Shown here: positions 7,095-40,632 of the stretch, piece by piece
Position numbering within the stretch: the first letter of the stretch is position 1
Layout of the letters: every line of letters starts with the position of its first letter
Sequence record: NC_106597.1
Origin: Escherichia phage BB1
Reading direction: 5' to 3' (one strand)
Length of the DNA stretch: 64,000 nucleotides
Notes under the pieces: generated by a model
What the model was told of the DNA's origin: nothing
Seen by the model: the letters and a program-made list of their open reading frames with translations, nothing else
The model's database searches: none
Program-made: the position numbers and the translations under genes

Positions 7095-9662
7095 TTGAAA
7101 ATCGCAGTAGTTGATAAAGCTCTAAACAACACTCGTTATGATAAACATTTCCAGCTATACGGCGAGGAAGTTGATGTATTCCATATGTGTAACGAGAAGT
7201 TATCTGGTCGTTTGCTTAAAAAGCACATTACTATTGGAACACCAGAAAACCCATTTGATCCTAATGATTATGATTTTGTTATACTAGTAGGTGCCGAACC
7301 TTTCCTGTACTTTGCAGGTAAGAAAGGTATTGGTGATTATACCGGTAAACGTGTAGAGTATAATGGATATGCTAACTGGATTGCGAGTATCAGCCCAGCC
7401 CAGTTACATTTTAAACCTGAAATGAAACCAGTTTTTGATGCAACAGTAGAGAATATCCACGATATTATCAATGGTCGTGAGAAGATTGCAAAAGCTGGTG
7501 ATTACCGTCCTATTACTGACCCTGATGAGGCGGAAGAATATATCAAGATGGTGTATAATATGGTTATCGGACCTGTCGCATTCGACTCCGAAACCTCAGC
7601 ACTATACTGTCGAGATGGTTATCTGCTTGGTGTTTCTATGTCTCACCAAGAATATCAGGGTGTATATATCGATTCTGATTGTCTCACAGAGGTTGCAGTA
7701 TATTATCTCCAGAAAATTCTGGATAGTGAAAACCACACTATTGTTTTTCACAACTTGAAGTTTGATATGCACTTTTATAAGTACCATCTGGGACTTGCTT
7801 TTGATAAAGCGCATAAAGAACGCAGGCTCCATGATACCATGTTGCAGCACTATGTTCTAGATGAACGTCGTGGTACTCATGGCTTGAAATCTCTAGCGAT
7901 GAAGTACACCGATATGGGTGACTATGACTTCGAACTAGATAAGTTCAAAGATGATTACTGCAAAGCACATAAAATCAAGAAAGAAGATTTCACCTATGAT
8001 TTAATTCCGTTTGATATTATGTGGCCTTACGCTGCGAAAGATACAGATGCTACCATACGTTTGCACAACTTCTTCTTACCAAAAATTGAGAAGAATGAAA
8101 AACTTTGCAGTCTGTATTACGATGTTCTAATGCCTGGTTGTGTATTCCTACAGCGTGTTGAAGATCGTGGTGTACCTATTTCTGTTGATCGTTTAAAAGA
8201 AGCTCAGTATCAGTTAACCCATAATCTGAATAAAGCCCGTGAGAAACTGTATACTTATCCAGAAGTCGTTCAGCTAGAAAAAGACCAGAACGAAGCATTT
8301 AACCCAAACTCTGTTAAGCAGCTACGTGTTCTTCTGTTTGATTATGTTGGTTTAACTCCAACAGGTAAACTGACGGATACTGGAGCAGATTCTACGGATG
8401 CAGAAGCTCTGAATGAACTGGCTACGCAGCATCCAATTGCTAAAACTCTGCTAGAGATTCGTAAGCTGACTAAGCTAATTTCTACTTATGTTGAGAAAAT
8501 TCTTCTGAGTATTGATGCAGATGGTTGCATTCGTACTGGTTTCCACGAACATATGACTACTTCTGGTCGTCTGAGTTCTTCTGGTAAACTGAACCTGCAA
8601 CAGTTACCTCGTGATGAATCTATTATCAAGGGTTGTGTAGTAGCTCCTCCTGGGTACCGTGTAATCGCGTGGGACTTAACAACTGCGGAAGTTTACTATG
8701 CTGCTGTTCTATCTGGTGATAGAAATATGCAACAGGTATTTATCAACATGAGAAATGAACCTGATAAATACCCTGACTTCCACTCTAACATCGCACACAT
8801 GGTATTTAAGCTCCAATGCGAGCCTCGTGATGTTAAAAAGTTATTCCCAGCTCTGCGTCAGGCTGCTAAGGCAATTACCTTCGGTATTTTGTATGGTTCT
8901 GGTCCGGCTAAAGTAGCTCATTCTGTTAACGAAGCTCTTCTGGAACAGGCTGCTAAGACAGGAGAACCGTTTGTTGAGTGTACTGTTGCTGATGCGAAGG
9001 ACTATATCGAAACTTACTTCGGTCAGTTCCCGCAGCTTAAGCGTTGGATTGATAAGTGCCACGATCAGATCAAGAATCATGGATTTATCTATAGTCACTT
9101 TGGTCGTAAACGTCGTCTGCATAATATCCATTCAGAAGACCGTGGCGTTCAGGGTGAAGAAATTCGTTCTGGGTTTAACGCAATCATTCAGTCTGCTTCT
9201 TCTGATAGCCTACTTTTAGGTGCTGTAGATGCAGATAATGAGATCATTTCTCTTGGCCTAGAACAAGAGATGAAGATTGTTATGCTGGTTCACGACTCCG
9301 TAGTTGCTATTGTTCGTGAGGATTTGATCGACCAATACAATGAAATCCTGATTCGTAATATTCAGAAAGACCGTGGTATTAGTATTCCTGGCTGTCCGAT
9401 TGGTATTGATTCAGATTCTGAAGCTGGAGGTTCTCGTGACTACTCTTGTGGTAAGATGAAGAAACAGCACCCATCAATCGCTTGTATTGATGATGATGAA
9501 TATACTCGTTATGTCAAGGGTGTATTACTTGATGCAGAGTTCGAGTATAAGAAACTAGCTGCAATGGATAAAGAGCATCCAGATCATAGCAAATACAAGG
9601 ATGATAAGTTTATTGCTGTATGTAAAGATTTGGATAACGTGAGAAGGATTCTCGGTGCTTAA
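7095..9662 (+). CDS. DNA polymerase, family A, with 3'-5' exonuclease domain
   Basis: Exo motif FDSETSALY; motif B RQAAKAITFGILYGSG; motif C LVHDS; TTG start 7 nt after AGAGGAG; 855 aa, as recalled for T5 polymerase. Confidence 0.9.
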   Translation: MKIAVVDKALNNTRYDKHFQLYGEEVDVFHMCNEKLSGRLLKKHITIGTPENPFDPNDYDFVILVGAEPFLYFAGKKGIGDYTGKRVEYNGYANWIASISPAQLHFKPEMKPVFDATVENIHDIINGREKIAKAGDYRPITDPDEAEEYIKMVYNMVIGPVAFDSETSALYCRDGYLLGVSMSHQEYQGVYIDSDCLTEVAVYYLQKILDSENHTIVFHNLKFDMHFYKYHLGLAFDKAHKERRLHDTMLQHYVLDERRGTHGLKSLAMKYTDMGDYDFELDKFKDDYCKAHKIKKEDFTYDLIPFDIMWPYAAKDTDATIRLHNFFLPKIEKNEKLCSLYYDVLMPGCVFLQRVEDRGVPISVDRLKEAQYQLTHNLNKAREKLYTYPEVVQLEKDQNEAFNPNSVKQLRVLLFDYVGLTPTGKLTDTGADSTDAEALNELATQHPIAKTLLEIRKLTKLISTYVEKILLSIDADGCIRTGFHEHMTTSGRLSSSGKLNLQQLPRDESIIKGCVVAPPGYRVIAWDLTTAEVYYAAVLSGDRNMQQVFINMRNEPDKYPDFHSNIAHMVFKLQCEPRDVKKLFPALRQAAKAITFGILYGSGPAKVAHSVNEALLEQAAKTGEPFVECTVADAKDYIETYFGQFPQLKRWIDKCHDQIKNHGFIYSHFGRKRRLHNIHSEDRGVQGEEIRSGFNAIIQSASSDSLLLGAVDADNEIISLGLEQEMKIVMLVHDSVVAIVREDLIDQYNEILIRNIQKDRGISIPGCPIGIDSDSEAGGSRDYSCGKMKKQHPSIACIDDDEYTRYVKGVLLDAEFEYKKLAAMDKEHPDHSKYKDDKFIAVCKDLDNVRRILGA

Positions 9663-27720: not shown

Positions 27721-30700
27721 TTACATATTACCAAGAGATTTAAGGGTGGATCCATTCTCATTAAGAGCCAGTTCCACGGCATCTCTTAAAGCAGTGCTGT
27801 TATTCGATGCAAAATCTCTAAAGCTAGCAGCATCCATTGTGCTAATATTCAGAATGATTGGTCTTCCAGAGGTAGTCTTTGATCCATCAGAAAGCTGATC
27901 ATTAGGTGTGGCTTTCATAGGAACCATAGGAGTTACTACTTCGGTACCATGCTCACCCATTTGATAACTAACCCCAGGGTACATCATACCACCTTCAGCA
28001 CGAGGAACAAATGAGTTGGCATTACCAATACCTTTATCACCACGTAGGTAGGATAATTCTCCTGAGCTAGCTTGCATAGATACATCAACGTTCTTCTGTC
28101 GCTCACCTAGGGTTAGGTACTGAGTAGTATCTGCTCCAGAATCTGCAATAGAAGACATACCAGATGCAGAAGATGCTTGAGCAAGAGCTAAGGCACCTGC
28201 TAAACCTGCCGCCACCATCAAAGGAATAGAGAACGGGTATGGTACAGCTGTTGCTGCCTGCATTACTGCCACTGCTGTCTGGATAATAATTTGTTTCTTT
28301 GCTGCGTCTTGCTGGATTTTTAACTTTTCAGCTTCTAACTTTTTCAGTTTAGCTTTAGATGCTTCAGATTTACCATCTCGTTTCTGTTCTGCTGCAATAG
28401 CCTGATCAATTGCACTAACCTGTTGACTAGTACTATATTGAATCATAGAGGCCACAGTCTGCATACCAGAAGCAATCATAGACGTAGTATCTAGAGATCC
28501 CTGTGAGAATTGAATCATAGAGTTAGTTAAATTACCCATGCTTTGAGCTACAGCAGTTGCTTCGGAATTTAACTCAGATAGTTTAGAGATTGCCTGATCA
28601 TATGAAGACATCCTATTCTGCATATCAGCAAAATCTTTATCTGCTCCAGATAGACCAGTTGTAGGAGTATAAGTAGCTCCAACAGAAGAACCTACCTGTT
28701 GCTGCATCTGAGCATTACGTTGTGCTGTTAAAGCTGACATCTGGGCCCTTGTCTTGGCTATTTCGGCATTCCAGCGCATTTGCTCGTTAGCATTACCTTT
28801 GGTAAGTTCTTTCATCTGAGTATAAAAATCTAACTGCATTTCCATTTTTTGCATTTCCCCTGCCAGAGGGAACATGGAAGTTAGAGTATTTTCAAAGGCT
28901 TCTTGCCTTTTACTGGTCATTTCAGCTTGCTGATCCTGACGGAATTTCCATATTTCACGTTCAATTTGGGCTTGAGAACGTCTAGACTGTTCAGCCTCTT
29001 TCTGTTTATCAGCTTGTTTTGTATACCATTCGTACTTCTCTTTTTCAATGGTCAATTCAAGATTTAACTGTGCTAGACGATACTGAGTATCTGTCATAGT
29101 ACGGTTATTTAAGAGAGCTATCTCACGATCTACACCAAGAATTTTATCTGTGTAATCCTTGACCTTCTTCTGAGCTTCCATACCATGATTGGTAAGTTTA
29201 AGTTTCTCCAGCTGAATTTTTTCAATTTCTTTCTCAACAGCTTTATTTCCCTGGTTTGTTTGAAGAACACGGCGTAAAGCAGTTTCTTGCTCTTCTAACT
29301 GTTGCAACTCTAAACGTCTACCAGCTTCCTGAGCTTTTTCCTTATCCTTAGTTTGATTATACACATCAGCTATTTTCTGTTGAACTGCTAACTGATTTTT
29401 AGTTTCATTACCCGTTAGTTTAACGTACTCGGATAAGGCTTGGGAAGCAGTTTTCATCTCAGATAGGGTGTTAAACCCTAAGTTGAGACTTTTAACATAC
29501 TCATCCGCACTCTTACCAGTTCCTGCGGAGAGAGATTCTACATTTCTAATTACCTCTTCAAAAGTTGCACTAGTTTTAGCAGCGGTATCTGTACTACTAG
29601 CTATATTTTGAAAGTCATTAGCTAAATCACTAGCCGTTTTCTTAGTCTGATTATATGCTTTTTGTTGTTCTGTCAGGCTCTTTAGAGCAGCAGAATTAAA
29701 GTCGTATACAGCATCTGGGTCATACACATCTTTCTGTAGATTAATCTGTTTCTGGAACTCTGGATTAGCTTTTGCAGCAGCAGCTCCAGCAGCTTGATAA
29801 GCCGATTTCCAAGCATTGAGGTTCTCTGTAGAATCCTCTACTTCCTTACCAAGTCTAGTTACTTGTAGACCCATAGCCGCTGTTTCTTCTACAAACTTTT
29901 TATTAGCTTCGGAAGCGCCCGCGGCTGCAATACCAACAGGAATACCTTCACCAACTTGACGTATAGCTAGTTTTGTATAGAAATCTGCTTGTTCCATTCG
30001 TTTATCGAACTCAGATTTTAGCTTATTACGCTTATCAAGAGATTCCTTATACATATCTAGAGCTTTATTATAGCCTTCTTCAGAAGCGGCCAAACTTAAA
30101 GCAACAGCACCAACGTTGGTAGGATCTATCTGTCTATTAGTTTTTTCTTGAGCTCTAGCTGCTTCAGCAGATACAGAAGCCTGAGAAGTATAAAATACTG
30201 TGTTGATAGCATCAATTACTGGCCCTAAGTACTTAGCAGCAGCTTGTTGTATTGTTCTTAGTGCAGCATCTGCGTTAGCAGCAAATTGCTCCCACGGAGT
30301 AGCACGTAAAACTTCATCTAAGTAACCAAAACGTTTAGTAGATTCTGCTATAACAGCATTAGCATACGCTTGCTGTTTCTGGAAGGTAGTAAGGCTATTA
30401 ATATTATATGTTATACCCGTGTTTGCAGCATTTAACTGTTTAACGTAATCAGCATAAGCATCGTTAAGACGAATAGTAACACCAAGTTCATCCAGAAGTT
30501 CGATTTCTTGTTTAGATACACCCTTAATTACACGGTTAAGTGCGTCAGTCATATCAACGCCAAGAACAGCAGCAGCACGACGAGCTACTAGACCAAACTT
30601 ATTAAGTTGTTCAGCATCAAATCCATAAGCGGACGCTGAGGATGCTTGTCTCATAGCTTCTTCAAAAGAGATTGCATAGCCAGCTGCCTCTTGCAGTGAT

Positions 30701-31404
30701 CTAGCAAGGGACTGAACAGGAGTACCTGTCTGAGTACCTACTATAACACCAAATTTTTCTAGACGATTTAGCTGATCACCTAGTTTAAGTTGTTCGAATG
30801 CAGATTGCAAAACGAAGATGTTGGAAGCAAGAGCTGCGTACATAATAGGTAAACTACCACCTATCTTAGCCATTGCTGCAAAATCACGAGTTGCACCGCG
30901 TGCTGAACCAGAAGTATTACCAATAGCTCTAGAAGCTCTACCAGCAGCACCAGCAGTATCATTAAAACCTCTAGCTGTACCGCCTAAAACTCTATTGGTA
31001 TCATACAATCTATCTTGAACTTTCTCTGTTGCAGCTGCAACATCATTACCCATTGCTTTAACAGATCTAGAAACTCCATCGAATCCAATTTCTAGTTTAT
31101 CTGTTACTTCAATAAGTTGGATAGCCAGGTAATCTAGCTTATCACCAATACCATCAATGGATTTAGTGATACCAGCCATACCCCTACTAGCTTGCATTTT
31201 AGTAAGACTTTTTGCTGCTCTATCTGCTGCCCTCTCAATGGAGTATAGAGTTCTGGGCATTTTACCTAACTGTTCATTTGTTAGTTCAGAAGCAGCAGCA
31301 GCGTTCTCTAATGCATCAGCTACGTTTTCAATAGACTTTGCAGTACGAGTTGCCCCCTTCTGTTTAACGTCTATTAGTAATTCTCGTATTAGCTTATCAG
31401 TCAT
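27721..31404 (-). CDS. tail tape measure protein
   Basis: 1227 aa, long coiled-coil, Ala/Gly-rich hydrophobic segment near C-terminus; between chaperone-like genes and distal tail protein. Confidence 0.8.
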   Translation of the reverse strand: MTDKLIRELLIDVKQKGATRTAKSIENVADALENAAAASELTNEQLGKMPRTLYSIERAADRAAKSLTKMQASRGMAGITKSIDGIGDKLDYLAIQLIEVTDKLEIGFDGVSRSVKAMGNDVAAATEKVQDRLYDTNRVLGGTARGFNDTAGAAGRASRAIGNTSGSARGATRDFAAMAKIGGSLPIMYAALASNIFVLQSAFEQLKLGDQLNRLEKFGVIVGTQTGTPVQSLARSLQEAAGYAISFEEAMRQASSASAYGFDAEQLNKFGLVARRAAAVLGVDMTDALNRVIKGVSKQEIELLDELGVTIRLNDAYADYVKQLNAANTGITYNINSLTTFQKQQAYANAVIAESTKRFGYLDEVLRATPWEQFAANADAALRTIQQAAAKYLGPVIDAINTVFYTSQASVSAEAARAQEKTNRQIDPTNVGAVALSLAASEEGYNKALDMYKESLDKRNKLKSEFDKRMEQADFYTKLAIRQVGEGIPVGIAAAGASEANKKFVEETAAMGLQVTRLGKEVEDSTENLNAWKSAYQAAGAAAAKANPEFQKQINLQKDVYDPDAVYDFNSAALKSLTEQQKAYNQTKKTASDLANDFQNIASSTDTAAKTSATFEEVIRNVESLSAGTGKSADEYVKSLNLGFNTLSEMKTASQALSEYVKLTGNETKNQLAVQQKIADVYNQTKDKEKAQEAGRRLELQQLEEQETALRRVLQTNQGNKAVEKEIEKIQLEKLKLTNHGMEAQKKVKDYTDKILGVDREIALLNNRTMTDTQYRLAQLNLELTIEKEKYEWYTKQADKQKEAEQSRRSQAQIEREIWKFRQDQQAEMTSKRQEAFENTLTSMFPLAGEMQKMEMQLDFYTQMKELTKGNANEQMRWNAEIAKTRAQMSALTAQRNAQMQQQVGSSVGATYTPTTGLSGADKDFADMQNRMSSYDQAISKLSELNSEATAVAQSMGNLTNSMIQFSQGSLDTTSMIASGMQTVASMIQYSTSQQVSAIDQAIAAEQKRDGKSEASKAKLKKLEAEKLKIQQDAAKKQIIIQTAVAVMQAATAVPYPFSIPLMVAAGLAGALALAQASSASGMSSIADSGADTTQYLTLGERQKNVDVSMQASSGELSYLRGDKGIGNANSFVPRAEGGMMYPGVSYQMGEHGTEVVTPMVPMKATPNDQLSDGSKTTSGRPIILNISTMDAASFRDFASNNSTALRDAVELALNENGSTLKSLGNM

Positions 31405-31419
31405 ATTTTATTTTTCCCA

Positions 31420-31452
31420 ATAAAAAAGGCTCTGGGCAAATCACCCAGAGCC
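31420..31452 (-). terminator. terminator hairpin immediately upstream of tape measure start (copy 2)
   Basis: GGCTCTGGG-CAAATCA-CCCAGAGCC with T6 on minus strand. Confidence 0.6.
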
Positions 31453-31487
31453 AAGCCTCATCGTGGAACGCCCATTGGAGGAAACTT

Positions 31488-31856
31488 TTACCGTGCACGA
31501 GATCTAGCATGTGGCTTAACGTTAGGAATCCTTCCGTTTTGCGGTTTATGCTTCTCGGCACGTTTACGTGCAGCATCTACAGCTTTAGCATCAAATATAT
31601 TGATAATGTGTAGAACAAATTCTTTTTCTATAGGATCAGTAATCCCATAAATATCAAATAAAACACCTAAAGCAGCTTTGTCTTTACCTATAAAAATAGG
31701 AAAGTCACCAGGTATGAAACAGTCAATTAGACTATTATAAATATTCATACTAATAGCTACAATAGGTGGAAAGTCTTCAAGTTCAACAGGCATAGCCTTA
31801 GGATCAGGCTCTATACCCATTGATTCACAAAGTATTAAATATTGTTGTTTAGTCAT
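31488..31856 (-). CDS. hypothetical; possible T-like extension of tail assembly chaperone
   Basis: No RBS; its frame is open for about 29 codons upstream of its ATG, overlapping the 3' end of ORF 31918..32322 in the +1 frame. Confidence 0.35.
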   Translation of the reverse strand: MTKQQYLILCESMGIEPDPKAMPVELEDFPPIVAISMNIYNSLIDCFIPGDFPIFIGKDKAALGVLFDIYGITDPIEKEFVLHIINIFDAKAVDAARKRAEKHKPQNGRIPNVKPHARSRAR

Positions 31857-31917
31857 TTTAGATGCTGAGCTTTTAATACACTTATCTGCAAAATCAGCAA
31901 CAGCATCTAGTAATTCT

Positions 31918-32322
31918 TTACGCTTTTGAGCTACGAAAAGTGTCTAAGTGGAACACTGTCTGGTTGATCCAAGAATCAAACGCGGCGGAGTTCTGCATAA
32001 GCATTACAGCATTATCACGACTAAATGGAACTTCAGTAGCAGGATCAGCATCTGTTTCAATCAGCATCAGTTTTTCAACGTCACCTACAGTCAAACCAGT
32101 CCAACCTTTAATCGCAGCATCAACGAAGGCTTCAATGAACTTATCATCATCCTGTACCTGAATCAAAGTACCGTTAACCCACTCGTCACGCTTAGCAGAA
32201 GTGATAACTCGCTTAGAAGTAGCACGAGACATATAATTAAGCTCTAGCTTAAAGTTAGGCATACCTGGGTATGAAAGGGTGACAGTACGAGTTTCTAGGG
32301 TAATATCTTTTAAGTTAATCAT
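31918..32322 (-). CDS. putative tail assembly chaperone (G-like)
   Basis: 134-aa acidic ORF between tail tube and tape measure genes. Confidence 0.4.
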   Translation of the reverse strand: MINLKDITLETRTVTLSYPGMPNFKLELNYMSRATSKRVITSAKRDEWVNGTLIQVQDDDKFIEAFVDAAIKGWTGLTVGDVEKLMLIETDADPATEVPFSRDNAVMLMQNSAAFDSWINQTVFHLDTFRSSKA

Positions 32323-33218
32323 TATTTTCTTTCTCCAAAGAAGTTTATTTCTACAGGATCTGAATCAGCAGTTGGTATTACATCATACTCTACCTGATAC
32401 AAATCTGAGAAGTTTAGGCGTTTTGAAATACGTGCTAAAGGGAATGTTATAGAAACATATTTATTTTTAATAATTAGTGGAGTTCTTGTTTCCGGGTCTA
32501 GATTCAAGAACTTATCTCCTACCAATCTCTTAACGTAATAGAAAGCTAGCGTTGCGGAAGCATTCATCTCATTGACATAAGCTCGTTTATTAGTATAAAC
32601 TTTATTTATATCAAATATACTTCTATCTTCTCTCCAAGAACATTGTTGCTGGAAGGACATAGATGCTGAAATTAATGCGGGCAATGGCGCGCTATTAGTA
32701 TACACAGCTGGAGGACTATATGGAAGTACTTCACCTTGTGTAATTGTATATCCATCGCGGAAAGTAGATACTTCAGAGAATTTTCCAGACTCAATACCAA
32801 CATTTAGGATCGGTATACTCTTATCTAAAGAAAAATCAACTGTTGATACATAACAGTTTTCGAAATAAATACAGCTATTATTATGATTAATAATATACAT
32901 ATTGAACATAATAGGTTCAATATTGGGAGTATTTCTTGGCAAAAATAAAGAATTTCCCTCACGCGTGAATCCCATCCAATCAAAGAAATTAGATTCAATA
33001 AGCGTAGTACTGAAATTTATTGCCAATGAAATAGATGAAGGATCTTGAGCATTAATAATAGAGTCTGCATAGTTGGTACGATTATGAATAGTACGTCTAA
33101 GAGTTTTAAACTCTTGAAAAGACGTACTAGCATCATAGTTAGAGAGGGCATCGAAATGATACCCTCTACCATCATACTCAATAACTATTTTAGACTCTCG
33201 CATGAGAGAATAAAACAT
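32322..33218 (-). CDS. tail-associated protein (p140-like by position)
   Basis: 298-aa ORF directly downstream of major tail protein. Confidence 0.35.
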   Translation of the reverse strand: MFYSLMRESKIVIEYDGRGYHFDALSNYDASTSFQEFKTLRRTIHNRTNYADSIINAQDPSSISLAINFSTTLIESNFFDWMGFTREGNSLFLPRNTPNIEPIMFNMYIINHNNSCIYFENCYVSTVDFSLDKSIPILNVGIESGKFSEVSTFRDGYTITQGEVLPYSPPAVYTNSAPLPALISASMSFQQQCSWREDRSIFDINKVYTNKRAYVNEMNASATLAFYYVKRLVGDKFLNLDPETRTPLIIKNKYVSITFPLARISKRLNFSDLYQVEYDVIPTADSDPVEINFFGERK

Positions 33219-33222
33219 TTAA

Positions 33223-34617
33223 TTAACCACCTGCTGTTACAGTAATCTGTTTAGTGCCTTTAACTCCAGAACCATCTTTAGCAGTAGCTTCTACAGTTAC
33301 TGCACCAGTTTTACTAACATCTGCTTTTAGTAATCCTGTTGCACTGATAGTAGCTGCATCACCAGCAGTGATAGCCCAAGTAACTTCCTTATTTTCTGCG
33401 GAAGAAGGAGTAACTTCAACACTCATCTGAAGAGTGGCAGAAGTGTTTACTGTAGTAACATTACCCGCAGATTTAACAGTAATTGCAGTTACAGCATCAG
33501 TAGCACCATTACCATTAACAATCAAGTTATTAATAGTTGTTTTGGTATACTTACTAGAGAAGCCTAAGTAACCCTCATCACCTGCATCCAGCTCTGACGG
33601 AATAGCCTTAAACTCTACTGATGTACCAAGTACATCATCAGTCTCAATCGTAGGAATATTAACGTGCGCTTGTTTGGCTACCAGAATAGCTGCAGGACGT
33701 TCATCCTCATACTCGCCACCAAGTACTAGAGCTATTTCGAAGCGGTTAACTACCTTCAGAGTTTTGATAAGATCTTTATACAGTTCCATAGAACCAAGAG
33801 ATTTATCATTCAGATAAGCAGTTAACGAACCAGTTAATTCAAAAGCACCAGTAAAGGAACCAATTGGAATAGTAACACGGGACATTACATTAGGTGTTAG
33901 ATAAGTAATGTTGTTGTTAATAGTAAAAGTACCACCGGTAATTGGTATGTCGTAAGACTTATTGGTATCCATGTCCTTGATCTTAAGGATCGTTAATTTG
34001 TTCTTGATGTAAGAACCCTGGATAGTCATATAAGTTTCATCATCAATACCTATTTCATCTGGGTCAAATGGTTGCTCATCCAGAGGAATAAGCTGATTAC
34101 CATTACCAGACCAAGTTACACGGCCAATATCTTCAATATCAACGTTAACTTCTGCTTGATTAATCTGACAGGAATCGATATAACTCCATGCTTTATCAGT
34201 CAGAATATAAATGTGTAACATTGCTAACTCGTGATAAGAGTTATCTTTGAAGTTAACCATAAAGTTAGCTTCGTTATTGTGTGCCCCCGTATTACCTTCT
34301 AGGTTAATAGCTTTACCACTAGAAAGTGCATGCCATAACATATAGTCAGGAACAATTTGTTTGTTAGTAGTTTTGTCTTTATATGGCAGGATATAGGTAG
34401 AGAAACTCCACTCAGCTGCGTTTAAAGAGTCGTTAAAACGTTTAGAACCACGAGTTGGACGCGGACCAGCCTCATTAACAGTAATATCTGTTGAGTTACT
34501 GTCCTGACCCCAAGAAATATCATCCTGAACTAGAATCTCTTGCGTGTTGGTCTTATTATGACCAGTCTTAACCGTAGACACGAAGATTCGAGTATTACGT
34601 AATAGTTGTAAAGACAT
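33223..34617 (-). CDS. major tail tube protein (pb6-like) with C-terminal Ig-like domain
   Basis: 464 aa; C-terminal Ig-like segment (TVKSAGNVTTVNTSATLQMSVEVTP...VTVEATAKDGSGVKGTKQITVTAGG). Confidence 0.6.
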   Translation of the reverse strand: MSLQLLRNTRIFVSTVKTGHNKTNTQEILVQDDISWGQDSNSTDITVNEAGPRPTRGSKRFNDSLNAAEWSFSTYILPYKDKTTNKQIVPDYMLWHALSSGKAINLEGNTGAHNNEANFMVNFKDNSYHELAMLHIYILTDKAWSYIDSCQINQAEVNVDIEDIGRVTWSGNGNQLIPLDEQPFDPDEIGIDDETYMTIQGSYIKNKLTILKIKDMDTNKSYDIPITGGTFTINNNITYLTPNVMSRVTIPIGSFTGAFELTGSLTAYLNDKSLGSMELYKDLIKTLKVVNRFEIALVLGGEYEDERPAAILVAKQAHVNIPTIETDDVLGTSVEFKAIPSELDAGDEGYLGFSSKYTKTTINNLIVNGNGATDAVTAITVKSAGNVTTVNTSATLQMSVEVTPSSAENKEVTWAITAGDAATISATGLLKADVSKTGAVTVEATAKDGSGVKGTKQITVTAGG

Positions 34618-38981: not shown

Positions 38982-40195
38982 TCTTTATCTCCCTCGGTGG
39001 AACCTTGAGGTCTACCACCTTCTTGACCAGATACGCCTGTTGCAGAACCAGCAACGTTAGCAGGAATACGAATCTTATTCATCTGCTCATCATCTAAAGG
39101 TTCAAGGTTCAGCTCTAAACGAGCTTCGTTACCAGTTATAATACCATTATTAACCAATGAGGTTAAATGTTTAGCCTCAGATTCTTTATCTGGTGTTAAT
39201 GCAGCTACTTCCTTAGTATTAGGAGTAATCTTATAACCAAAAAAGAAAGTAAGAGAACTAGTCAGCTTGTTCAGCATAGGGATGATAGTCATATAGTAGA
39301 ACAATTCGATGTTTGGTCGAATGTTCGCATTATTACCACCATCAAGCAGTACTTGCGGAACACCAAAGGCTAGACAGATAGATTTATTAAATCCTTCAAT
39401 GTCTTCCTTAAAGTCTAGATCTTTAAAAGAGGATATTTGGGAGTACGGTTTAGCTTTCATACCACCATCTAGAATCAGGACAGAGGACTGACCAGTACTA
39501 GGATTATAATCTAGTTGTAATTCTTCTTGTTTACGCTCACGCAATTTCTTGTTCAGGATTTCATCCGTCTCAAGAATAAGACCAATCACGGTTCCGTTAT
39601 CGAGGAATTTCTCTTTAAAGTTAAGCATCTTGGAACGCTTCTCAAGAGAATCAATAACAGTAGCAACACGAGATTGTCCAGAAATTTGAGAGTTTGTGCC
39701 ACACACGTAACTGTTATCCTTTATAAAGATAATCTCATCTACGCGATAGTCTATCTGATTATTAAATATAAATTTTTTGATAAACTTATTGGCATCTGCC
39801 TCTACTTGCATTAGTGCAGCAGGGACATGATAAAGTGCTGTGCCATCCCAATAGATGTATGCACAACCTTCAAAAAGTAGGTCAGTGACTACAAGTCTAC
39901 GGAATGTGCTTATATCCATGAATGGATTAGGTCGTACATTTAAGAGAGTGTCTAGAGTCTTTGTCTTGATGCCATTGGCATACGTGACAATATTATATTT
40001 ATCTCCGACAGTATAAGAACACTCCGCCGCACTATCTATAACCATATTAGCAGTTCTATTGAGAATCTCAATTTTACTGTAGGCTTGTCCAGTGGTAAAA
40101 GGCTTACGGTTAGTGCGATGACTAACTGGTTCCATGTCTCTTATAATACGTTGACCCGGATTTAGCTTTTCAGTAATCCAGCTTTTAAAACCCAT
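38978..40195 (-). CDS. portal protein
   Basis: 405-aa ORF between terminase and protease. Confidence 0.65.
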   Translation of the reverse strand: MGFKSWITEKLNPGQRIIRDMEPVSHRTNRKPFTTGQAYSKIEILNRTANMVIDSAAECSYTVGDKYNIVTYANGIKTKTLDTLLNVRPNPFMDISTFRRLVVTDLLFEGCAYIYWDGTALYHVPAALMQVEADANKFIKKFIFNNQIDYRVDEIIFIKDNSYVCGTNSQISGQSRVATVIDSLEKRSKMLNFKEKFLDNGTVIGLILETDEILNKKLRERKQEELQLDYNPSTGQSSVLILDGGMKAKPYSQISSFKDLDFKEDIEGFNKSICLAFGVPQVLLDGGNNANIRPNIELFYYMTIIPMLNKLTSSLTFFFGYKITPNTKEVAALTPDKESEAKHLTSLVNNGIITGNEARLELNLEPLDDEQMNKIRIPANVAGSATGVSGQEGGRPQGSTEGDKE

Positions 40196-40632
40196 TATAA
40201 GAACCTTGCGAATCCTGATTTTGTTTCAGTCTTGACTTGTGTCTTTTCTTGAGGATTCTGTAATTTGTCTTTCTGCTTTTGAACCCACACTTTTTGCTTA
40301 TTAGCAGAAAATAAAGGAGGTTCTTTTGTGTAAACCTTATGTAATAATTGGTGATGGTGTACACAAAGGGTAACAGTGTCTTCTACTAGCTCATGCCTAT
40401 ATCGATCATAGAATGCCGTCCTATTTGAAAGGACTGTTTCTTCGTCAGTGAAATCCAATTGGAGTTCTTTAGCAAATTTTTTAACTAGTAGAGACACCGT
40501 ATGGTAATGATGAAGCTCTAATTCTTCAGCACAACCGCAGATAGCACATTGAGAGTCTTTTTTATATTGACTTTTTATTCCGTCTCTCATAAGGGATATA
40601 GCATCGCGTTTATATTTTATATTGCTTGCCAT
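40195..40632 (-). CDS. HNH endonuclease
   Basis: CAICGC...LELHHYH...CVHHHQLLH motif; start moved to ATG 40632 with GAGGAG RBS; track ORF extends to 40719. Confidence 0.6.
   Translation of the reverse strand: MASNIKYKRDAISLMRDGIKSQYKKDSQCAICGCAEELELHHYHTVSLLVKKFAKELQLDFTDEETVLSNRTAFYDRYRHELVEDTVTLCVHHHQLLHKVYTKEPPLFSANKQKVWVQKQKDKLQNPQEKTQVKTETKSGFARFL

Follow-up and report, generated by a model that had tools for sequence, protein, structure and literature searches.

Two small genes of a T5-like tail module, designated here ORF A and ORF B, are probably read together as a 277-residue tail assembly chaperone of the G/GT type, by means of a programmed +1 slip on the sequence UUU_CGU. Both genes are located on the minus strand, upstream of the tape measure gene, in a 64,000-nt stretch of the genome of Escherichia phage BB1 (NC_106597.1), hereafter the window. 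A +1 fusion of this chaperone-like pair had been put forward tentatively in the first-pass annotation, and the proposal is now supported, at the level of sequence, by the assignment of both products to PHROG families, by coding constraint on the linker between the two ORFs, by a conserved TTT_CGN motif and by the slippery heptamers found in a sister clade.

Gene order, protein families and reading frames

The window contains the tail gene module of a T5-like phage (Tequintavirus). The region shares 99.3% identity with Salmonella phage vB_StyS-LmqsSP1, and 444 T5-like records (Tequintavirus/Epseptimavirus) share at least 80% identity with it; no tRNA genes are present within the 64,000-nt stretch. 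The minus-strand genes follow each other in the order pb6-like tube, p140-like baseplate tube, ORF A, ORF B, terminator-like hairpin and tape measure (Table 1), with the pair thus placed 5' of the tape measure gene and 3' of the tail tube genes, as in modules of the G/GT type. The start codon of ORF A overlaps the stop codon of the baseplate tube gene (TAATG).

The strong hairpin in the gap between the chaperone and tape measure genes implies that transcription of the tape measure gene is attenuated relative to that of the chaperones. At the corresponding position, T5, BF23 and Klebsiella phage Spivey also have an annotated terminator of this kind. In T5 (NC_005859), the endonuclease gene T5.141 (221-973 in the locus extracted) lies between ORF B and the tape measure gene, while here the two are separated by a gap of just 83 nt (31405..31487). 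The RefSeq record of NBSal005 presents the tape measure gene as two CDSs (1597-1854 and from 1868 onward in the locus extracted), which is probably the result of a sequencing frameshift or an assembly error.

Table 1. Features of the chaperone locus and its neighbourhood (positions in the window).
Feature	Position	Strand	Remarks
pb6-like tail tube gene	34617..33223	-	
p140-like baseplate tube protein gene, directly 5' of ORF A	32322..33218	-	Pfam PF23779, E 2.3e-141
ORF A, G-like tail assembly (tape measure) chaperone, 134 aa, zero-frame product	31918..32322	-	Stop codon TAA, 31920..31918
ORF B, 122 aa	31856..31488	-	+1 frame of ORF A
Overlap of frames A and B, both open	31921..31943	-	Shift must fall here
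Proposed +1 shift site, UUU_CGU	31933..31938	-	TTT, 31938..31936; CGT, 31935..31933
Linker from ORF A stop to ORF B ATG, 61 nt, frame-B coding, without start codon	31857..31917	-	
Frame-B (T-like) part of the predicted fusion, including annotated ORF B	31488..31934	-	phrog_3914, E 1.2e-56; phrog_313, positions 170-258
CAAAAG, alternative slip site as in the record of phage Shivani	31923..31928	-	Modelled there as a -2 shift
Terminator-like hairpin between chaperone genes and tape measure gene	31428..31452	-	11 bp, 7 GC, followed by T6
Tape measure protein gene, pb2-like, 1227 aa, presumed chaperone client	27721..31404	-	

Both ORFs match PHROG families of tail assembly chaperones. Within the 258 positions of phrog_313 (tail assembly chaperone), ORF A corresponds to positions 12-141 (E 3.5e-34), and the more distal part of the family is covered by ORF B extended upstream (E 3.1e-17), which also matches phrog_3914 (Table 1). 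A local Pfam-A scan of ORF A returned nothing at E <= 0.1. Precomputed Pfam matches to PF27119 ("Phage_YdaY") are available for homologues of ORF A, and the absence of this match for ORF A itself means either that the model is newer than the Pfam copy used or that ORF A is below its score. The AlphaFold model of ORF A, obtained from 75 diverse homologues, has a pLDDT of 95; its comparison with the PDB by Foldseek gave no match, and an HMM search of PDB sequences with the ORF A family gave no relevant one. For the fusion, AF2 prediction from a single sequence reached a pLDDT of 46.6 and could not be used, and a search for homologous proteins with the fusion as query returned nothing.

The geometry of the pair given in the first-pass annotation was confirmed. 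Relative to ORF A, ORF B is shifted by +1, as (32322-31856) mod 3 = 1, and its frame stays open for 29 codons (31943..31857) before its ATG, a stretch that reads TLFVAQKRKELLDAVADFADKCIKSSASK. The overlap of frame B with ORF A comprises 23 nt before the ORF A stop codon and 26 nt with it, or about 8 codons. No ribosome-binding site precedes the ORF B ATG, the 16 nt upstream of it (AAGCTCAGCATCTAAA) containing no GGAG, GAGG or AGGA, and frame B contains no ATG, GTG or TTG between 31943 and 31857. A second ORF that overlaps the first in another frame and lacks a conserved start or ribosome-binding site is a feature of G/GT pairs. The canonical -1 heptamer of such pairs, X_XXY_YYZ, is absent from the overlap, as had been noted, and the -1 frame is closed by TAG at 31933..31931. 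The annotation had reported no canonical slippery heptamer, which is correct, but it had overlooked a signal of the +1 type, UUU_CGU, at 31938..31933.

By itself, the 29-codon open stretch is within chance expectation: its probability at the given base composition is 0.14, and at least 29 open codons precede the first ATG in 3 of the 56 window ORFs that reach 100 aa. Its significance thus comes from comparative data only. Longer open stretches before the first ATG, of 47 and 38 codons, were observed for 7185..9662 (+) and 40195..40632 (-), respectively; these ORFs likely have GTG or TTG starts or mis-set starts.

According to the proposed mechanism, in a minority of ribosomes on ORF A that reach Phe-129 (UUU, 31938..31936) with CGU in the A site, peptidyl-tRNA-Phe (anticodon GAA) would slip one base forward, from UUU to UUC (31937..31935), and reading would resume in frame B at GUA (31934..31932). 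This would be a low-efficiency P-site slip at 31938..31935. The predicted fusion, join(32322..31936, 31934..31491), would comprise 277 aa, with ...HLDTF read in frame A and VAQKRKELL... in frame B (predicted junction peptide DNAVMLMQNSAAFDSWINQTVFHLDTFVAQK), and its C-terminal part would be the T-type domain that is now annotated as a separate ORF B. We infer the slip, its efficiency and a G/GT-like division of labour modelled on lambda gpG/gpGT: the short form, as the abundant product, would cover the tape measure protein, recruitment of the tail tube protein would fall to the rare fusion, and both would be absent from the virion.

Linker coding constraint and the two frame classes

The overlap and the linker were compared among 30 unique T5-like sequences. 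The linker contains 21 variable sites, of which 15 are third, 5 first and 1 second positions of frame-B codons (binomial P = 4e-4), and the same pattern is seen inside ORF B (26/8/3) and inside ORF A read in frame A (16/5/2). The frame-B peptide of the linker, FVAQKRKELLDAVADFADKCIKSSASK, can still be recognized in Sugarlandvirus (FVTQNRNRLLKEIDAFAERCVKGGDSK) and Pantoea phage AAS21, and homology of the frame-B peptide across genera extends right up to the Phe. The ATG of ORF B is kept within the T5-like group and is replaced by ATA in Sugarlandvirus and by GTT in AAS21; in other genera the first frame-B start is found elsewhere, 8 to 31 codons further on. The linker thus appears to be translated without means of initiation, and entry from ORF A is required. 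Upstream of the ATG, no stop codon interrupts frame B in any of the 61 related loci with the +1 arrangement described below, over a divergence to about 30% identity. In public records the length of ORF B is given as 122 or 110 aa, with different ATGs chosen, which fits the absence of a clear ribosome-binding site.

A hairpin is predicted in the linker of the T5 group (31909..31860, minus strand; CUAGAUGCUG...CAGCAUCUA; z = -2.0), with one compensatory change, from U-A to C-G, in an Epseptimavirus-like locus (L024). Its 3' arm ends 4 nt before the ORF B ATG, which the hairpin might mask; it is not conserved in Sugarlandvirus or AAS21. A sigma-70 promoter scan of the linker revealed nothing above background.

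Comparison of the frame relation in related phages, suggested in the first-pass annotation as a check of the fusion, was performed on 196 related loci from IMG/VR, GenBank phages and metagenome assemblies. Frame B is +1 relative to frame A in 61 of them and -1 in 135. All 47 cultured-phage loci belong to the +1 class, comprising Tequintavirus, Epseptimavirus, Sugarlandvirus, Pantoea AAS21, Pogseptimavirus, Thalassavirus, Novosibvirus, VCPH and the Vibrio D-phages, and this class also holds at least eight metagenomic lineages. An in-frame TTT followed by CGN is present where both frames are open in the locus studied and in 61 of 61 +1 loci, the third base of CGN being T, A or C (TTT_CG[T/A/C]).

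The -1 class consists of the 135 uncultured relatives, with 34-45% identity to the cultured ORF A queries and 34-40% to the ORF A studied here. A canonical heptamer in the correct phase was identified in 124 of the 125 complete -1 loci, namely A_AAT_TTT in 83 and G_GGA_AAC in 41. The sole complete locus without it (L102, 1855-1875) reads GCG AAT TTT (G_AAT_TTT), one base off A_AAT_TTT. An invariant Phe codon is common to both classes and is located in or adjoining the heptamer in the -1 class; this Phe is one of only three invariant residues among 75 representatives with no more than 50% identity to each other. A single T in the T-run sets the classes apart (AACTTTTCGAA versus AACTTTCGAA; AAC TTT TCG AA versus AAC TTT CGA A), and one T inserted at the +1 site would give, when combined with a heptamer, the -1-class sequence AACTTTTCG. 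Across the junction, the reconstructed +1 and -1 fusion proteins align without gaps. The presence of -1 heptamers at the homologous codon indicates that the family demonstrably relies on frameshifting. In the NJ tree the -1 class forms one clade, with the +1 lineages as a sister or basal grade, indicating that the +1 arrangement is old and stable and not a decaying remnant.

No protein spanning both halves was found among the best 150 matches in 1.84 billion representative proteins, so that the frame break appears to be maintained and not resolved by fusion; judging from these sequences, it is always kept, as would be expected if short and long products are both needed. One 94-aa database protein (P0003) crosses from the A to the B part (...FRSSKRKLLDAV...), and its end is spurious sequence. 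It was rejected as a natural fusion and looks like the product of an indel-ridden, error-ridden short-read contig.

Location and context of the proposed slip site and alternative explanations

The extent of the overlap differs between lineages and confines the site from both sides. In T5-like phages, Sugarlandvirus and locus L087, frame B opens just two codons before the Phe, and in AAS21, all Vibrio lineages, Proteus phage 2 and several metagenomic lineages the frame A stop is located 1-3 codons after TTT. The entire overlap in Vibrio phages D28 and D239 is 11 nt long and reads AAC AAC TTT CGT, followed by TAA. Intersection of the permitted windows across lineages leaves just these four codons, within which +1 re-pairing is possible only for tRNA-Phe, from UUU to UUC. 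Polymorphism within the T5-like group is consistent with this. The 26-nt overlap contains only two variable sites among the 30 unique sequences: GAC/GAT at 31942, 5' of TTT, has no effect in frame A and changes Thr to Ile or the reverse in frame B, and TCA/CCA at 31929, downstream of TTT, exchanges Ser and Pro in frame A and is silent in frame B. The polymorphisms thus switch from synonymous in frame A to synonymous in frame B across TTT, which fits a slip there.

The Phe codon is TTT, not TTC, in all 26 unique +1 contexts and in 7 extra lineages; in the control, the Phe codon that follows G_GGA_AAC in -1 loci, TTT occurs 25 times and TTC 6 times. The whole hexamer is conserved despite the existence of synonymous alternatives (TTC, AGR). 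As TTT and CG are under dual coding, with Phe in both frames, this conservation cannot be counted as separate proof of slippage.

The A site of the T5-like phages is not occupied by a rare codon that is decoded slowly: among the Arg codons in the ORFs of the window, CGT comes first (360 of 800), and the classical "hungry A-site codon" stimulus is thus missing in this subgroup. In Vibrio and some metagenomic lineages the A site contains CGA. Nine more in-frame TTT_CGN are present in other ORFs of the window, so the motif alone does not cause high-level shifting, and only a low percentage is plausible. Among the 69 ORFs, TTT_Ynn is depleted (104 observed versus 162 expected) and TTC_Ynn enriched (164 versus 104; Fisher P = 6e-20), and before CGN the ratio of TTC to TTT is 19 to 10, compared with 280 to 456 elsewhere (Fisher P = 0.006). 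The depletion of TTT_Ynn and the preference for TTC before CGN both fit selection against accidental +1 slippage; plain context bias could also account for the former.

Searches near the site detected no conserved stimulatory RNA structure (consensus fold -3.1 kcal/mol), no Rfam match at E <= 1 and, across lineages, no upstream SD-like or purine-rich element and no consistent E-site codon, this being ACU, AAC, CGA or AAU. The linker hairpin (31909..31860) was rejected as a stimulator, since it starts 23 nt after the A-site codon, which is too far, and is not conserved outside the T5 group. The stop codon of ORF A was also rejected in this role, its distance from UUU varying from 1 to 18 codons between lineages, as was a +1 shift of the prfB type, which involves a stop codon in the A site and an SD-like stimulator 3 nt upstream, both absent here.

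It is quite unlikely that there is no recoding and that A and B are independent proteins, the latter translated from its own ATG (31856) downstream of an open frame that is a relic. Two CDSs are indeed annotated in all records inspected but one, the T5 RefSeq included, yet the annotators differ on where ORF B starts. Its ATG is conserved within the T5-like group, but lacks an SD sequence and is lost or displaced in the other genera. The 29 open codons alone are not unusual; against a relic, however, stand the linker substitutions, which follow the frame-B coding pattern, the absence of stop codons from the same interval in all +1 loci and the textbook -1 signals of the sister-clade homologues. 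Independent initiation at the ORF B ATG could nevertheless coexist with frameshifting. Also unlikely is a fusion through CAAAAG (31928..31923), produced either by a +1 move of tRNA-Lys from AAA to AAG or by a -2 shift of the kind annotated in Salmonella phage Shivani, whose joined 277-aa product has the junction ...FRSSKKRKELL. tRNA-Lys is a known slippery tRNA, and the sequence is invariant in 33 T5-like loci. In AAS21, the Vibrio lineages, Proteus phage 2 and several metagenomic lineages, however, frame A ends before any A-run, and the base after the run is C or T in Sugarlandvirus, where a move from AAA to AAC or AAT would lead to mispairing. The -2 move, for its part, places tRNA-Lys on CAA. 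Exchange of TCA and CCA at 31929 leaves the frame-B peptide unchanged, as if that frame were already being read upstream of CAAAAG.

Transcriptional slippage on the T-run, termination-reinitiation and sequencing or assembly error, taken together, are highly improbable. A short T-run does occur at the site, but it is 4 nt long here and 3 nt in most +1 lineages, far below the known lengths for polymerase slippage, and a long homopolymer is not present. The closeness of the two ORFs would suit reinitiation, which leaves the coding constraint upstream of the first start codon unexplained. Sequencing error is ruled out by the same frame relation in 444 near-identical genomes and by the presence of two pieces in all 908 tblastn-positive phage records.

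Relation to known frameshifts and significance

The UUU_CGU slip favoured here can be compared with several known systems. Production of the lambda tail chaperone pair gpG/gpGT by programmed frameshifting is described, according to PMC5009743, by Levin (1993) and Xu, Hendrix and Duda (2004, 2013, 2014). Unlike in lambda, the shift proposed here is +1 and not -1, no XXXYYYZ heptamer is involved, and the putative signal is a single P-site codon, UUU_C.

The signal itself resembles that of certain eukaryotic RNA viruses. The +1 site of influenza A PA-X, UCC_UUU_CGU, has been proven by mass spectrometry (PMC3498833), and UUU_CGN is the +1 motif of amalgaviruses, found also in fijivirus and CBPV (PMC5052127). 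The core UUU_CGN is identical, tRNA-Phe can re-pair on UUC, no downstream structure is obligatory, and the motif has been retained throughout a family of divergent viruses. In those viruses, however, CGN is rare and slowly decoded, whereas the host here is a gamma-proteobacterium in which CGU is common, and the E-site codon, UCC in PA-X, is ACU, AAC, CGA or AAU in the present family.

According to PMC5009743, UUU_Ynn in bacteria is "especially prone to +1 frameshifting" even when no stop codon is involved. The shift sites of this type listed in that source are E. coli argI (Fu and Parker, 1994; Schwartz and Curran, 1997) and, likely, Yersinia YopN-TyeA. They share with the present site UUU followed by a pyrimidine, the same host translation apparatus and no need for an adjacent stop codon. 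The argI shift is, however, regarded as an error, YopN-TyeA uses UUU_UGG, and neither is a phage morphogenesis gene or conserved family-wide. The +1 frameshifts in tail or capsid genes of Listeria phages PSA, A118 and A500 and of SPP1 (PMC5009743, PMC9022992) likewise represent P-site slippage in structural-module genes of phages, but they occur on CCC_UGA or ACA_CCC with tRNA-Pro, are stimulated by a stop codon or pseudoknot and extend major tail or capsid proteins, not chaperones.

A joined CDS has once been annotated for this gene pair. Salmonella phage Shivani (KP143763) carries a 277-aa "tape measure chaperone" (AJA73579.1 / YP_009194776.1), which was found through a BFVD match, its junction being taken from an exact-sequence look-up. 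The gene pair is the same (96% identical), as is the idea of a 277-aa fusion, but the shift is modelled there as -2 on CAAAAG, which most of the family lacks. The joined CDS is not mentioned in the genome announcement (PMC4342426) and has not been propagated to the T5 RefSeq or other records; its existence means that the fusion idea is not entirely new. In a later paper, T5 and Sugarland are said to have no predicted frameshift signal (PMC6256483). The literature that could be searched contains no account of a conserved UUU_CGN signal, of its family-wide extent or of the -1/+1 dichotomy on one Phe.

Overall, we consider it on balance probable that UUU_CGN, which has until now been seen as a +1 cassette of eukaryotic viruses, is an ancient, obligatory programmed +1 signal in the tail chaperone gene of T5 and all cultured Demerecviridae whose genomes were compared, supplying the "missing" GT-type chaperone, and that the same Phe codon serves either -1 (A_AAU_UUU) or +1 (UUU_CGN) shifting, with a single-T indel flipping between the two.

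T5 is a model of siphophage structure and assembly, yet its annotation lists the tail chaperones as two small proteins without relation to each other. If the proposed reading is correct, an essential morphogenesis gene is wrongly annotated in over 900 public Demerecviridae genomes, and gene callers and PRF predictors would gain a concrete +1 motif. UUU_CGN would then be a cross-kingdom +1 signal, working on bacterial ribosomes with a non-rare A-site codon, and the -1 and +1 sister clades would offer a clean system, a natural experiment on slip direction and efficiency. The G/GT paradigm would reach T5, with a different recoding chemistry.
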